DNA of 64,000 nucleotides from Escherichia phage CMS-2020a. The stretch lies in sequence record CP054387.1. One strand, given 5' to 3'. This document shows, piece after piece, positions 3,001-9,000 of this stretch (position 1 is its first letter; the number at the start of each line of letters is the position of its first letter). The position numbers are program-made.

Positions 3001-6000
3001 ATTTCCTGAGCGTACATACGGATGAATCGCTGCCAGTCTGTCTCGTCGGGGGTTGGATCTGGTGGGGTCATTTCTGCGATAGCGTTTCGTAGCTGATGCG
3101 CCCAATCAGGTTCAGGAAAGCCTTTTGCTACTTCATCATCAATAACATCCAGAGCCACGTTTGCGGCATCGTAGAGTTTCTTAATTGCTGCCATGTTTAC
3201 TTCTCCTTATAAATAGGAAAATAATCACCTTTGAAAAAATAAAGCAAAGATATATTCACTCCGATACAAGACGTTTATATGCTTCGATGTCTCGACGTGC
3301 TTCACCGAGTTTTCTTCTTAGGTCCATATTTTCTGATTCAAGTTTTTCAATGTTTTTTTGGTATCGGCCACGATGTTCTTCCCAGGCATCCTGATATGCC
3401 TTCATATATGTCGTATTAGCCTTTCTTTTTGCCTGACGAACCGCGTGGTGATTTTCTACAAACCAGTCAGGGTCGTTAAATGCTGCTCTTGCGCATTTAT
3501 ACCAATAATCGGTTGACTCTCTGTTTAACCAATGAATGGTGATAAATGGTAATCGAATAGACAGAATTTTTCGTTTGGAATCTCGCTCACCAAACATATG
3601 CCCTTTTTTTATCTTTAAACCGAACCCAGGTTGAATTAAAAGCATTGTCAGTACCTCAGATGCATTTATGGCAGTAATTCTTTACCGCTTTCCATTTTGG
3701 TGATAGAGACAATAGGATCATCGTTAATGCATGATTCTGTGCCTAATGCTGCTAACCCTTTACGCATAACCGTGCCCGCAACATACGCCTCAATCTCCGC
3801 CTTTCCAGATGAGACAATTTCATCCATTTGTTCCTGCATTAATTCGGTAGCAAAGCACAGATTTTCAGGAAGGTTAGCTACAGCAGATGCTAGTTTTCTA
3901 TATAGTTCTTCAAGGTCACGTTTTCCAGCTCTTCCTTTTTTCACAAGTTCACCTAGCTCTGAAACTTGCTGATTAAGTCGATCAATCTCACTATTCGTAG
4001 CGGCCTTTATTTGATCGTTGAATTTTTGCCGAATACTTTTTTGCTCGGCAATATCATGAACTCTAATTGAGTCTCCAATGGTTTTATATGAAATAGTGCA
4101 TGGCACACCTTCGCCCACTCCAAAACTGCTAACCATAGCAGCCCATTGTGCCTGGCTAAGTCTAATTTCAACTAAAGGCCGTCTATTGCAACTTCTTTGT
4201 GGGCGGGTTCGTTCATTGTCTAAGGACAGTTCCGCCTCGTAAACGCCTATTTCAATATAGTCTCTATGTTCCAGTTCTGAATCAAATAGGCGAATGCCAG
4301 TTGTGCTAACACGGCTTGTTTTCACAAGACCGAACGCTGGATGTGTTTGAATTTTTTCCCCATGTTTATTAAGGGTCGTTTTTGGTTCTTCAATTTTTCT
4401 TTTCATCTTATTAACCTCTATGCTTCATGCGTAAAGTTAAATGACAATTTTTTTTAATATCCGGCGTATTCGTATTCTTCATTTAGACCGTATTCTTGTG
4501 GAGTGATACCAGGACAACATAACTCAAAGGCGAACTTGCGCCATTTGATTTTTTCTTCTGACGATTGTTTGTTATTCGCCGGTGCAATGTAGTCATATTC
4601 CCATTTGCCGTTGCGAAGTAAAATGAATCCGCAGTTATTGCCGAAGTCTTCGTCTGCATAACGTATTACAAACTCAAGGTGCGGGAACTTTCTAGCCATC
4701 GCTTGATAAATTGGTTTTGGCATAGACCAGGCTGTTTCAAAGCGAATCACCAACTCACCACCAGTTGCGGCATGTCTTGCAAGACGTTTTTTATAGATTC
4801 GTTTTGCATATGCTCGAACGTGTGTATGGCGGAAATTATGGCCGTACTTAATACGTGTAGGGATACGTTTTACGGGCATTTCGATGTTGTAGGCATTCCA
4901 TTTTGTTCCCCAATTAGCTCGCGACCAGTCAAACCATGAGTAATAGCCATAGCGACGATAATTCTCAAGCCGCATAAGAGCCTGCTCTTTGATTTTGCGA
5001 ATTTCCTTGCGTGTCATTCCTGATTCACGCATAGCTAATTCGACCTGTTCTGGAGTCTTTAATTCACCGAACATGTGGTCGTAAACTGTTTCGCCCGCCA
5101 TTGCAGAGGCCATGCGCCTGATATGATTGTTTTCTTCCATTTCTATACTTTTCGGACGTCTGCAAATGGTATTAAAGTCAATTAGACCTTTTTTGTTAGT
5201 TATGGCACGTATGAAATCTAAGCGTTGTTTATTTGTACCACCTATGACTCGGATTTCGTTTGTAATGTGGTTGGGCATAATTAACTTAACCTTTTAACAA
5301 ATTGTTTTCTTGTGTGTGATAATAACGAGAATAAAACGGCGTCCAACTGGACGCCTGATCTTCTTAATGAGAGTTATTTCACTGTAATGAAAGGAGTGTT
5401 AGCCCCTTGAGTCATGTACTGCGGTAACTGGCCATTCCATTTATTGATGGCTTCCAGTTCCATAACGTTCGGGTTTTGACGCAGAGCTTCACCGCGCAGA
5501 CGAATGGCGTCTGCTTCTGCTTGCGCACGAGCACGGATAGCATCAGCTTCACCATTAGCCTGTTCACGTAGCATATTCGCCTCAGCTTTACGTTGTTCAA
5601 CTTCCTGCTGACGTTGCAGAGTACGCTGGTTAGCCGTTACTTTGGCGTTGATAGATTCAATGACGGTTTTTGGGTAATCAGGCTTTCCAACCCATGACAG
5701 GCTCAGTACCTCAATACCAACCGGAGACATCTCTTTCTGAATATCTTTCAGTGCGTTGTCCAGCAATTGCGCCTTACCACCGTCGATAAATGAGTCAGTG
5801 GTCATACGGCTGGCCAAACGGTTTAGAGAGTCGGCAATTTTCTGACGCAGATCTGATTCGGTGATATCGTCTACGCCTTTGCGATAGGTCTGGAACACCG
5901 TCGTTACCTTGTCACGATTAACCAGATACGCAACGCCAATTTTGTGACCAATAGCAGTACCGTCACTCATCTGGAATGTGAACGGTTCGTCGTAGGTCTT

Positions 6001-9000
6001 CATTTGTTTGAAGGTCGGGAATACGTAAAGTTCGGTGTTAAGACCTGTCCATTGGCGACCAACGCCAACCACTTCACCGATCCCTTTGTCTTCACCTAAT
6101 TTGTTTACTTTGATGCCAACGTATCCAGGCTCCACGCGATCACAGCCAGTAAGACCCATTGTGCAAATAGCCGCCAGAGCAACTGCAAGTAAACCTTTCT
6201 TCATTACTTATTTCCCCTTTGCTTTGATTAATGAGTTGATAAACTTACGACCAGCAATAAGACCGATTACAGGAGCACCAAAACCAACGATAACTCCAAA
6301 CATGACGGCTAAATCACTCTTGGTAGAAATCAGCGACGGAACCAGTAAACCGTAGATGAGAGCCACTGAAACGCCTGTGGCTACTGCCAATAGATAGATT
6401 TTGATCATGTGTTTTCCTATGTGGTTGTTATGCGAAAATAATAAGTAAGTACTTATATATTTTCAAGAGATAAAAAAGGCGTCCTGTGGACGCCTTGTGT
6501 TTACTCTTCTACTGACTCGGTGGGGTTGTCTTTTGCTCTTCGGTCGTCGATTGCCTGCAAAGCCGCAATGATTTCAGCCAGTGGCTTCTCCCGATACATC
6601 TCGACGATCTGCGATTTGGTGTATTTCTTGTCACCAATTTCAACTCGCCCGCTGGCGTTCTTTGGCAGGTATCCTTCTTCCAGCATGTACTCGACGAGCG
6701 ATTCGATAACGTCGAGGCCACGAGTAGGATCGAAGTAGAATTTCCAGGTGCATTTGCCATACGGTGGTGCAACTTTGTTTTTGATGCATTCTGCGCCTAC
6801 GTCCTGGCCGATCTTCTCTTTACCATCCTTCATCACCGATGCACCAAGACGGATACGTACAGAAGCGTAGAACTTCGGTGAATCTCCACCTGGAGACGTA
6901 GTAGGGTCGCCAAACATTACACCGATTTTTGTGCGAACCTGATTCAAGAAGATGATGCAGGCGTTGTATTTGCGTGCCCACAAAGCCAGAGTAGGGAAGT
7001 TCGCACTTGTCGCACGAGCCAGTGCCGTATTGTCGTTCATGTTTAGCTGATCTTTGTCTTTGGCAGTGCCTTCAGCCATCTTTTCGAACTTCTCGGCTTT
7101 GGAGTTCGGAACCATAGACGCAAGTGAGTCAGCCACGATACAGATAGGTGCTGATTCAGGAATAAGCTCTTCATCACGTACCAATTTAAGAATTGTGCCG
7201 ATCAACTCTACAGAGTCTTCGAAGGTATCAGGCTGCTTGTATACCCACTGACCGTCATCCTCATCTGCATTCAAACCATTGGCTACAGCCAGGCCAACGT
7301 CAAAACTGTTCTCATGATCGAGGAATACCGCCAGACCATCTTGTTTCTGTGCGGAGATCATTGCTGCCGTTGCCAAAAAGGTTTTCCCCGCGCTTGGTGG
7401 CCCGAATACTTCTACGATACGACCACATGGGAAACCGCCATCGTAACGACCGGAAATCGCTTTGTTTAACGGAGGAAAGCCTGTGTCAATCCAATGAGTT
7501 ACTTTCTGAATTTCGTCGTTGCTACCGATTTTCTTTTTCAGAGCAAGTGCCAGTGCGGATTTTCCTTTTGCCATGATCAGGCTCCTTTTGTTTCGTTGAT
7601 TCGTTTTAAAGCGGCGGATTCGTCGAATACAATCGCATCGTGGTTAAGGAGTCTGGATACACGAGCGAGGATTTTTACGACCTGCTCGCTGACTAATCCA
7701 AACTCGCGATCTGTCGCTTTCATTCCGGCAGCGCCTAGAATTGACGGCAGTGCGATGACAGCGTACTCACCGTGATAAAAGACAATCTCTTTTGCCAGTT
7801 GGGTAGGGGTGGTTGTAGCGCCATTAATAATCGATTTAAGCATTAGCAATACCTTTCGAATGGAAGAACAAACACTTCAAGGTCTTCAAGGAACGAACGG
7901 AAATTCAGCTCGTAGCACAGTTGCTCGAATGCTTTCACGTCACGATTGCCTTTGATTGTTTCGATTTCGGTAGGCGGAAACTTCGTCTCAATCAGGTTCA
8001 TTAGCGTGATGTTTCTCTTGAACGCTTCGAGCATTCGACAGCCTGTTTTCTCGTTGAAGGCATTCTTCGCTAGTTTGTTGAAGGCGGTCTTATGGCGTCC
8101 TTTGTCAACCACGATTGAGCCGTCGTTGATGCCGCGTACCATCGTTGCGACACTTCCCCATTCATGCAGCAGCTCTTTCGCACCGCCAGCACCAATGCCA
8201 CCAACACCGCTAATGTTGTCCGATTTATCGCCTTGTAATGCTTTTGCTTCCAAAAATGCGCGAGGAGTAGCGAATCCTGTCAGCTCCGCAAATTGCTCAA
8301 AATTAACCTGCTTGTTTTTGGCGTCTTCGCGCAGGCTTACCCAGCTTACGTTTTCGCGAACTAACTGAAGCCAGTCGCTATCGCCTGTTAACAGATAGAT
8401 GTGTTCAACAATTGGCTGCGGTGCAATGCTGGCTACCAGCAGCCCGGCCAGATCATCCGCTTCTGCATCTTTTGCAATGAGTTGGGTAACTCCAAGCGCG
8501 GTCATCATTTTGAGGATGTATGGCTTCTGGATAGCAAAGCCTTCCTTCATCTTTTTCATATCAGGATCGTCGTCGCGATTTGCTTTGTAGTCCGGGTAAA
8601 AGTCGCGACGCTTGTCACTAAATCCATCCCAAAGAATCATAGGTCGGGCATGGAGGATGGAGGCATAACGACGGACGTTCTTAACAAAGCCGAAAGCAGC
8701 CTGTACTTCCATTTCGCCGTTGTGCAATTTGTCAGATTGTTGGTGGTAATAACCCAGGCTATTGCCATCTACGAAGAGATAATTCACCGGTACATTCCTT
8801 CCAAAAAGTAAGGCGTCCGTAGACGCCTTACTGGTCACGTAATGGGATTACAGAGAGTCCAGCTCTCTCAGTAGGTCATCCAGACCTTCATCTTCCGTCG
8901 CAGATGCGGCTGCTACAGATGTCGCTGCGACTGCTTCAGACTCTTTGACTGATACTGCAACGGCAGCGGAACTTGCTTCTGGTTTAAATTCAGTTTCAAC

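Follow-up and report, generated by a model that had tools for sequence, protein, structure and literature searches.

Escherichia phage CMS-2020a (CP054387.1) carries a compact two-gene cassette on the minus strand of the 64,000-nucleotide (nt) stretch analyzed here, hereafter the window. The cassette encodes a 66-amino-acid (aa) protein predicted to form a hairpin of two transmembrane helices and, directly after it, an SPFH/Band-7 lipoprotein. By sequence comparison, the cassette is the same module as gp19-gp20 of coliphage N4, and the hairpin protein is a genuine, conserved partner of the SPFH protein. The module is not specific to phage-plasmids, occurring in lytic and temperate phages and in bacterial chromosomes. 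We propose that the two proteins form a two-component SPFH membrane scaffold of the N4 gp19-gp20 type that conditions the inner membrane of the host cell. Our confidence in this chain as a whole falls a little short of even; the structural part carries most of the weight, and the membrane-conditioning role is held at lower confidence.

Both proteins are already in databases as "SPFH domain-containing protein" and "hypothetical/membrane protein", under PHROGs 200 and 1130, and as N4 gp19/gp20. What appears to be new is the status of the hairpin as an ancient, motif-bearing and sometimes fused partner, which would define a distinct SPFH subtype (periplasmic, lipoprotein-anchored and non-NfeD). 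In addition, the distribution of the module argues against a lysogeny-specific role. A literature search turned up no study on the function of phage SPFH lipoproteins or of N4 gp19/gp20, and a 2026 phage paper describes the reason why phages carry the SPFH gene as unclear (PMC13239085).

The SPFH lipoprotein and its hairpin partner

The larger protein (276 aa) matches Pfam Band_7 (PF01145) over residues 23-209 (E=2.6e-30; 106.2 bits against a cut-off of 23.6) and PHROG 200, "lipoprotein" (E=3e-108). Its N-terminus, MKKGLLAVALAAICTMGLTG-C21-D, comprises a basic n-region (MKK), a hydrophobic core, the lipobox L-T-G-C, which fits the pattern [LVI][ASTVI][GAS]C, and Asp at +2. The initial annotation had called an SPFH/Band-7 lipoprotein here, and both the domain match and the lipobox ending in C21 bear this out. 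The predicted lipidated residue, Cys21, is near-invariant in the family alignment. Asp at +2 in E. coli lipoproteins is a Lol-avoidance signal that leads to retention in the inner membrane. At the other end of the protein is a family-specific signature, K-W-N/D-G-x-L-P, whose W256 and G258 are invariant in an alignment of 58 sequences. An exhaustive HMMER search with the SPFH protein returned 2816 cluster representatives at E<=1e-3, of which 195 reach E<=1e-30; the best 150 listed are for the most part 270-300 aa long and align almost end to end. The PHROG 200 profile has an N-terminal extension of ~80 residues beyond the protein in the window.

An AlphaFold model of the SPFH monomer, built on 58 diverse homologs, reached a predicted local distance difference test (pLDDT) score of 91.8. 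It begins with a signal helix and an alpha/beta core (residues 21-176), after which come a helix of 65 residues (179-243), a short helix and a tail; the single long helix accounts for the coiled-coil tail that had been noted from the sequence. Foldseek comparison of the model with the PDB gave HflK (7vhq_E) as the best match (E=9e-14). HflK/C, prohibitin, erlin and stomatin all fell between E=1e-13 and 1e-10, with weaker matches to flotillin (3e-09) and QmcA (3e-07). The subunit is thus predicted to have the full architecture of an HflK/prohibitin/erlin-like subunit. To our knowledge, all of the solved SPFH relatives matched (HflK/C, prohibitin, erlin, stomatin, flotillin and QmcA) form large membrane-attached cages.

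The match to HflK, also detectable at the sequence level (E=0.007), bears on the suggestion that the cassette modulates host membrane proteolysis. A phage cage could mimic or compete with HflK/C and trap or release FtsH or another inner-membrane protease; the turnover of CII-like regulators, LpxC or SecY would then be altered. HflK/C likewise faces the periplasm on the inner membrane (PMC13086221), and in Dyella the pair adjoins a BlaR1-type M56 membrane peptidase and a repressor. However, the SPFH protein scores below the NCBIfam equivalog cut-offs for both hflC (30.2 bits against 134.4) and hflK (18.7 against 159.4), and HflK/HflC orthology was rejected. There is a single SPFH gene rather than a heteromeric pair: no second paralogous SPFH gene lies beside the first, as it does in HflK/HflC, and the neighbor is the 66-aa hairpin. 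Because prohibitin, erlin and stomatin score almost as high as HflK in Foldseek, the resemblance to HflK appears generic to the fold. The protease neighbor is not conserved outside Dyella, and the module is also found in lytic phages, which make no lysogeny decision. We regard interference with host proteolysis as decidedly unlikely.

In the hairpin protein, two hydrophobic helices are joined by a short polar loop (STKSD) and followed by a basic C-terminal tail. The match of this protein to PHROG 1130, "membrane protein" (E=9e-26), agrees with the two-helix membrane partner of 66 aa described in the initial annotation. The positive-inside rule predicts an N-in/C-in topology, which would place the loop L-V-P-S-L-I-S-T-K-S-D in the periplasm. 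A word-based search with this protein found close relatives only, all named "hypothetical", and no Pfam family was matched in the profile search. Ten diverse hairpins likewise gave no match above any Pfam threshold and no NfeD model at E<=1. A check against NfeD models had been suggested for the partner; given the lack of a Pfam match, and as two transmembrane helices within 66 aa leave no room for an OB-fold (PF01957), an NfeD identity was rejected. Among close SSU5-like relatives, residues of the transmembrane helices drift while Y-G-L-L-V-P-S-L-I-S-x-K-S-D stays fixed, indicating that the constraint is on the periplasmic loop and not on the helices.

A role in the timing of lysis was considered for the small protein, as it resembles a class II holin in length (~66 aa), in its two transmembrane helices and in its basic C-terminus. 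The protein could be a class II holin, pinholin-like, or the target of an antiholin, and the SPFH cage could sequester it or the true holin and so delay lysis. Lysis is very delayed in coliphage N4, which carries the orthologous pair. We consider this explanation very unlikely. In phage Cyrano, a 92% relative, the lysis genes (holin, endolysin and Rz/Rz1) occupy 26.7-28.2 kb, some 30 kb from the SPFH pair at 57.5-58.5 kb. No Pfam holin family exceeded its threshold among the hairpin partners, the hairpin is kept beside the SPFH gene at chromosomal loci without lysis genes, and conservation lies in the periplasmic loop and not in the transmembrane helices. A holin was rejected as the principal reading of the small protein on account of the distant lysis cassette in Cyrano and the retention of the partner at non-phage loci.

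Conservation and distribution of the pair

BLASTP comparison demonstrated 64% identity between the SPFH protein and N4 gp20 (E=2e-130) and 41% identity between the hairpin protein and N4 gp19 (E=1e-7). The N4 pair and the cassette have the same gene order, overlapping or near-abutting open reading frames (ORFs), the same lipobox and the same loop motif, and both lie among early or middle DNA-metabolism genes. They differ in that N4 is a strictly lytic podophage whose pair does not form a separate, terminator-bounded cassette.

The association of the two genes extends far beyond N4. In viral contigs with SPFH relatives of 77-100% identity, the SPFH gene is in every case abutted by a hairpin ORF of 66-78 aa. 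Upstream of the SPFH gene, within ~200 nt and in the same orientation, 37 of 49 diverse loci encode a hairpin with the loop motif, compared with one match in an equal-sized downstream control. These loci come from Enterobacterales, Xenorhabdus, Morganella, Sutterella, Dyella/Rhodanobacter, Cupriavidus, Leptospira, Bacteroidota, an Iamiaceae actinobacterium and Dependentiae. At three other loci, the in-frame hairpin has a variant loop. The consensus anchored on the motif is G-x3-P-x-L-I-S-A-x-S-T-x2-V-x2-G. Three positions that the search pattern left free are also conserved: G-4 (33/52), V+11 (39/52) and G+14 (43/52). PHROG 1130 is matched by the hairpins of phages P88, Moo19, SPLA5a and phiP27 (an unannotated ORF), by the chromosomal hairpins of Dyella and Leptospira, and by the first 58 residues of the natural fusion P0153, with E values across the tested set from 1e-22 to 2e-6.

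Natural gene fusions also tie the two proteins together. In at least 18 distant cluster representatives, the hairpin, a basic linker, a signal-like helix with the lipobox Cys, and the SPFH domain are joined in frame; one fused representative has the hairpin at its C-terminus. An AlphaFold model of one natural fusion (pLDDT 89.3) has transmembrane helices at residues 2-27, 32-48 and 57-73, followed by the SPFH architecture. Because the third helix of the fusions would export the SPFH domain, the C-terminus of the hairpin must be cytoplasmic, and therefore the loop and the SPFH domain should lie on the same, periplasmic side. Read in this way, the fusions would fix both the 1:1 stoichiometry and the topology of the pair. 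The loci of Dyella, Leptospira, Xenorhabdus, Shigella and Sutterella have no third gene in common, and among them a BlaR1/BlaI neighbor was found only in Dyella; a conserved third gene and a conserved protease neighbor were both rejected.

The hairpin ORF is present and unannotated in phiP27 (locus L163, ~3300-3500) and in the P1-like record MH422554 (locus L253, ~2280-2520), and the missing annotation hides the pairing in both. In a group of prophages at 78% identity, a pseudogenized partner was suspected and rejected: the ORF, 78 aa long, is unbroken and runs into the start of the SPFH gene. Within this group (L048, 3784-4020, compared with L079), a run of six or seven A residues at the 3' end of the hairpin gene alters the C-terminus. 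The A6 form, in 33 loci, encodes the 78-aa protein overlapping the SPFH start, and the A7 form, in one locus, a 72-aa protein; the difference could reflect slippage or lineage variation.

Searching with tblastn, we found SPFH relatives in 376 phage records. Temperate carriers include the P2-like phage P88, lambdoid phiP27, Stx2a phages, a P1-like phage and Burkholderia phage phi1026b. Others belong to groups known to be strictly lytic: the N4-like Schitoviridae, Vequintavirinae, 350-kb jumbo phages, Felix-O1-like Erwinia phages, Bruynoghevirus, phiCbK-like Caulobacter phages, crAss-like phages and Lak phages. Among the phages sampled, the hairpin was found in N4, Moo19, SPLA5a (two genes upstream), phi1026b (gp49), P88, phiP27 and the P1-like record. 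The pair sits between cox and the replication gene of the P2-type early operon in P88, beside the RNA polymerase II genes in N4 and Moo19, and next to int-xis in phiP27; wherever its placement can be judged, it is among early or replication genes.

On bacterial chromosomes, Dyella and its relatives have a syntenic locus in which the pair lies between blaR1/blaI-like genes and hemerythrin and nrdAB genes. In Dyella halodurans (locus L104, 2955-5412) the pair lies next to, and divergent from, genes for a BlaR1-type M56 membrane peptidase and its likely partner, a BlaI-type repressor; among the contexts found, this one alone has a membrane protease as neighbor. In Leptospira the pair is located between succinate dehydrogenase and an EAL-domain gene, in Xenorhabdus between an MFS transporter gene and flhA, and in Shigella and E. 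coli chromosomes within prophage remnants riddled with insertion sequences. The full pair is present in 195 of 5426 complete E. coli genomes (~3.6%) and is plasmid-borne in all 195; about 100 further complete E. coli genomes have a chromosomal relative at ~76% identity. The initial annotation had framed the module around the lysis-lysogeny decision of lambda, and that framing is weakened by the occurrence of the same module in strictly lytic phages and at the chromosomal loci of Dyella, Leptospira and Xenorhabdus.

Superinfection exclusion, also raised in the initial annotation, or another form of defense would require a periplasm-facing cage that, with the hairpin, blocks translocation of an incoming genome or protects an entry factor in the inner membrane, in parallel with T4 Imm/Sp, P22 SieA and HK97 gp15. 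A small membrane protein and a membrane-anchored periplasmic protein made from a stand-alone cassette fit such a function in location and timing, and the temperate elements that carry them are stably maintained in the 195 E. coli genomes above. Furthermore, in N4 and Moo19 the pair directly follows a gene annotated "superinfection exclusion" (P22 gp17-like), and the SPFH gene of PhiSH19 adjoins a gene with the same annotation (PMC3220722). This adjacency is limited to two lineages, however, and the annotations are themselves putative. Neither protein of the cassette, nor either of the two downstream genes, matched PADLOC-DB 2.0 at E<=0.1, and a known defense system was rejected for lack of any match. 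The module is also kept at 30-45% identity across phyla and at a syntenic chromosomal locus in Dyella, whereas the exclusion proteins known to us are lineage-restricted and fast-evolving. We judge exclusion unlikely.

It has also been reported that a Pasteurella multocida prophage codes for a protein similar to HflK/C, PM0222, which is secreted in outer-membrane vesicles, signals via TLR1/2 and contributes to virulence (PMC9872710). By this precedent, the lipoprotein could be a surface or virulence factor of lysogenic conversion that is released, for example in vesicles, and acts on an animal host. Carriers of the cassette include clinical E. coli, Shigella and Yersinia pestis plasmids. PM0222, however, is no more than a putative homolog of the cassette lipoprotein. 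The module is frequent in lytic phages and in bacteria of soil and water; a virulence function cannot explain the copies in lytic phages and soil bacteria, and the conserved hairpin partner and the Asp at +2 point to the inner membrane. Such a function is extremely unlikely.

Expression signals, replicon and gene neighborhood

The coordinates of the cassette, of its predicted signals and of the adjacent genes are collected in Table 1. The two ORFs are separated by 3 nt (TAA-GTA-ATG), with the hairpin gene first. No terminator was found between them in the terminator scan, and for this reason the cassette is most simply read as one bicistronic transcription unit. The co-transcription expected from the initial annotation is thereby predicted, with the 3-nt spacing, conserved synteny and natural gene fusions as further support. 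A promoter and a terminator of its own had likewise been proposed; a promoter is predicted and flanking terminator hairpins were located by scan, and these signals are kept in relatives. Both hairpins persist in diverged SSU5-like relatives, where changes in the stems preserve pairing, and a promoter block of ~30 nt is near-invariant there despite diverged flanking DNA. The two bracketing terminators have a common stem core, GGCGTCC...GGACGCC, which could represent a repeated terminator module or a trace of cassette insertion.

Table 1. Features of the SPFH cassette and its surroundings in the window.
Feature	Coordinates	Strand	Basis or remarks
Hairpin-protein gene, 66 aa (stop included)	6408..6208	-	ORF; PHROG 1130; N4 gp19 homolog
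SPFH/Band-7 lipoprotein gene, 276 aa (stop included)	6204..5374	-	Pfam Band_7; PHROG 200; N4 gp20 homolog
Signal peptide (residues 1-20) and lipobox L-T-G-C	6142..6204	-	Sequence; helix 2-18 in model
SPFH domain, residues 23-209	5578..6138	-	Pfam envelope; model alpha/beta core 21-176
Long helix 179-243 and helix 245-255, then C-terminal motif	5440..5670	-	Model; alignment invariants
Shine-Dalgarno-like AGGA	6418..6415	-	6 nt ahead of hairpin-gene ATG; sequence reading
Shine-Dalgarno-like AAGGGG	6219..6214	-	In 3' end of hairpin gene, 9 nt ahead of SPFH ATG
Predicted sigma-70-like promoter, TTGAAA-17 nt-TATTAT	6466..6438	-	Scan, 10/12 matches
Predicted intrinsic terminator, AAGGCGTCC-ACA-GGACGCCTT then TTTTTT	6496..6476	-	Scan; -15.6 kcal/mol; closes recombinase unit
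Predicted intrinsic terminator, GGCGTCC-AGTT-GGACGCC then GTTTTATT	5355..5338	-	Scan; -16.6 kcal/mol; closes cassette
AGTACTTACTTAT motif sites	6441-6466 (-), 58206-58231 (-), 9968-9980 (+), 11 weaker		Motif scan of window
RecA/UvsX-like recombinase gene, 357 aa	6501-7574	-	Upstream of cassette
DUF1281_C / Api92-like protein gene, 274 aa	4454-5278	-	E=1e-15; PHROG 12644

The spacer of the predicted promoter contains a 10-bp palindrome, TAAGTACTTA (6446-6455), and a recurrent motif, AGTACTTACTTAT, of which the palindrome is part. At up to two mismatches, the motif has 14 sites in the window compared with 0.96 expected, a 14-fold enrichment. At two of these sites it is preceded by TTGAAAATA, forming a 26-nt promoter-like element whose second copy lies at 58206-58231. 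The motif sites look like a family of promoters or operators specific to the phage-plasmid, in which case the SPFH cassette would join a regulon. Of the marks of a phage "moron", the cassette has its own predicted promoter and terminator and lacks a deviating base composition: its GC (guanine plus cytosine) content of 0.42-0.49 is close to that of the flanks, and no foreign composition relative to the neighboring genes was found. Programmed readthrough of the in-frame TAA between the ORFs, weighed because fusions occur elsewhere, was rejected because the ORFs of close relatives overlap in another frame.

The replicon that carries the cassette is, by sequence, a phage-plasmid of the SSU5/pHCM2 type. 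The cassette region is 100% identical to non-mobilizable plasmids of ~108-110 kb in E. coli O104:H4 and Shigella sonnei, and shares 92-98% identity with Escherichia phages CMS-2020a, PhiR41_1 and Cyrano, consistent with the phage-plasmid origin originally assigned. Related plasmids include 62 Yersinia records, probably of the pMT1 type. Phage Cyrano has a complete siphovirus structural module together with a lysis cassette and genes for ParA, an integrase and a repressor. Its region 28190-30334 also encodes a KacT-type acetyltransferase toxin with its antitoxin, and a RelE/ParE toxin beside ParA; toxin-antitoxin genes of this kind are plasmid-maintenance modules typical of phage-plasmids.

The cassette lies within a long leftward array that includes genes for DnaE, an AAA ATPase, an SSB-like protein, a 5'-3' exonuclease and a recombinase. 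The recombinase gene, which encodes 357 aa in the window, is 2340 nt long in Cyrano (locus L002, 5215-7554), and a LAGLIDADG homing endonuclease is annotated under the recombinase region in one related plasmid. From these two observations, the gene seems to be polymorphic for the insertion of an intein or a homing endonuclease. Directly downstream of the cassette, the DUF1281_C gene, whose product has a ferredoxin-like domain, forms a separate unit past the terminator.

Proposed role and comparison with known systems

We propose that Sec exports the SPFH protein, which would be lipidated at Cys21 and stay on the periplasmic side of the inner membrane; the Asp at +2, relatives whose signal anchors are uncleaved and the topology that the fusions impose argue for this placement. 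By analogy with every solved SPFH protein, it would oligomerize into a ring or cage. In HflK/C and the prohibitins, each subunit has its own transmembrane helix. As the lipid-anchored SPFH protein of the cassette would have no such helix, the hairpin, present 1:1, would supply the fence within the membrane by adding two transmembrane helices per subunit, and its conserved periplasmic loop (G-x3-P-x-L-I-S-A-x-S-T) would dock beneath the SPFH domains. The module would then be a split version of the usual SPFH design, and the fusions its unsplit version. Such a cage would wall off a patch of the host inner membrane. Phages would express it early, with replication and recombination genes, and in the infected or plasmid-carrying cell the early cage would stabilize the inner membrane or insulate it; this is what we mean by conditioning. 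Its action would be on the membrane itself or on a universal inner-membrane component, and not on a phage-specific target, as suggested by the lack of a conserved accessory gene, the chromosomal copies in free-living bacteria and the repeated capture of the module by unrelated phages of both lifestyles. The benefit is probably one for infected cells at large and not one for the lysogeny decision.

Several points weigh against this proposal. Oligomerization, lipidation, inner-membrane retention and contact between hairpin and SPFH protein are all inferred. The +2 rule is weaker outside the lineage of the cassette, where relatives have Glu, Ser or Tyr at that position. The hairpin is not recognizable in the diverged phages phiEa104 and crAss PhiCrAssBcn1, and another small membrane protein takes its place in DL54 (one transmembrane helix) and CcrSwift (three). 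As these diverged relatives do without the hairpin, the partner does not seem to be strictly obligatory. No computation favors membrane conditioning over its rivals, and the sole basis for this role is the distribution of the module.

A more general proposal, which we find doubtful as a whole, is that the module represents an unrecognized, phylum-spanning two-component SPFH system, distinct from both HflK/C and SPFH-NfeD, that in some lineages is made as one precursor split by signal peptidase II. Phages of every lifestyle would have captured it repeatedly to wall off part of the inner membrane, perhaps to keep the infected cell energized, to resist membrane-targeting abortive-infection effectors, or to bar further phage DNA.

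The structures of SPFH cages (HflK/C, prohibitin, stomatin, flotillin and erlin) are now understood, while their physiological roles in bacteria are mostly unclear. The module offers a compact and tractable case, with two small genes and a non-NfeD partner, and its tractability is aided by orthologs in a model phage, N4, and in plasmids of a sizeable set of E. coli genomes. That unrelated lytic and temperate phages have captured it again and again implies that it confers a benefit during infection. If a phenotype were seen in N4 or in an SSU5-like phage-plasmid, it would be the first function for a phage SPFH protein, and would also probe how a lipid-anchored SPFH cage uses a separate transmembrane partner; should there be no phenotype, the module would be a common pair of accessory genes with existing database annotation.

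Three known systems invite comparison. T4 Imm and Sp are a small inner-membrane protein and a membrane-anchored periplasmic protein made early in infection, and the likeness of the cassette pair to them is one of place and time of action. They are not SPFH proteins and not adjacent partners, and no relationship to the cassette in sequence or fold was found. The E. coli HflK/HflC-FtsH complex (PDB 7vhp/7vhq, 7wi3 and 9cz2) is alike in its periplasmic SPFH domain and in its core, long helix and C-terminal cap. HflK and HflC, however, are two paralogs with an N-terminal transmembrane helix, whereas the cassette has one SPFH gene, a predicted lipid anchor and transmembrane helices in a separate hairpin. 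The SPFH-NfeD operons (QmcA-YbbJ, PDB 8z5g; YqiK-YqiJ; Pyrococcus PH1511-PH1510) combine an SPFH gene with the gene for a small membrane partner, and the cassette too has a partner gene that is adjacent and co-oriented. Unlike in these operons, the partner in the cassette has no NfeD OB-fold and its gene comes first; in addition, QmcA and YqiK face the cytoplasm, whereas the SPFH protein of the cassette is predicted to be exported. In both arrangements, the partner probably resides in the membrane patch beneath the cage.

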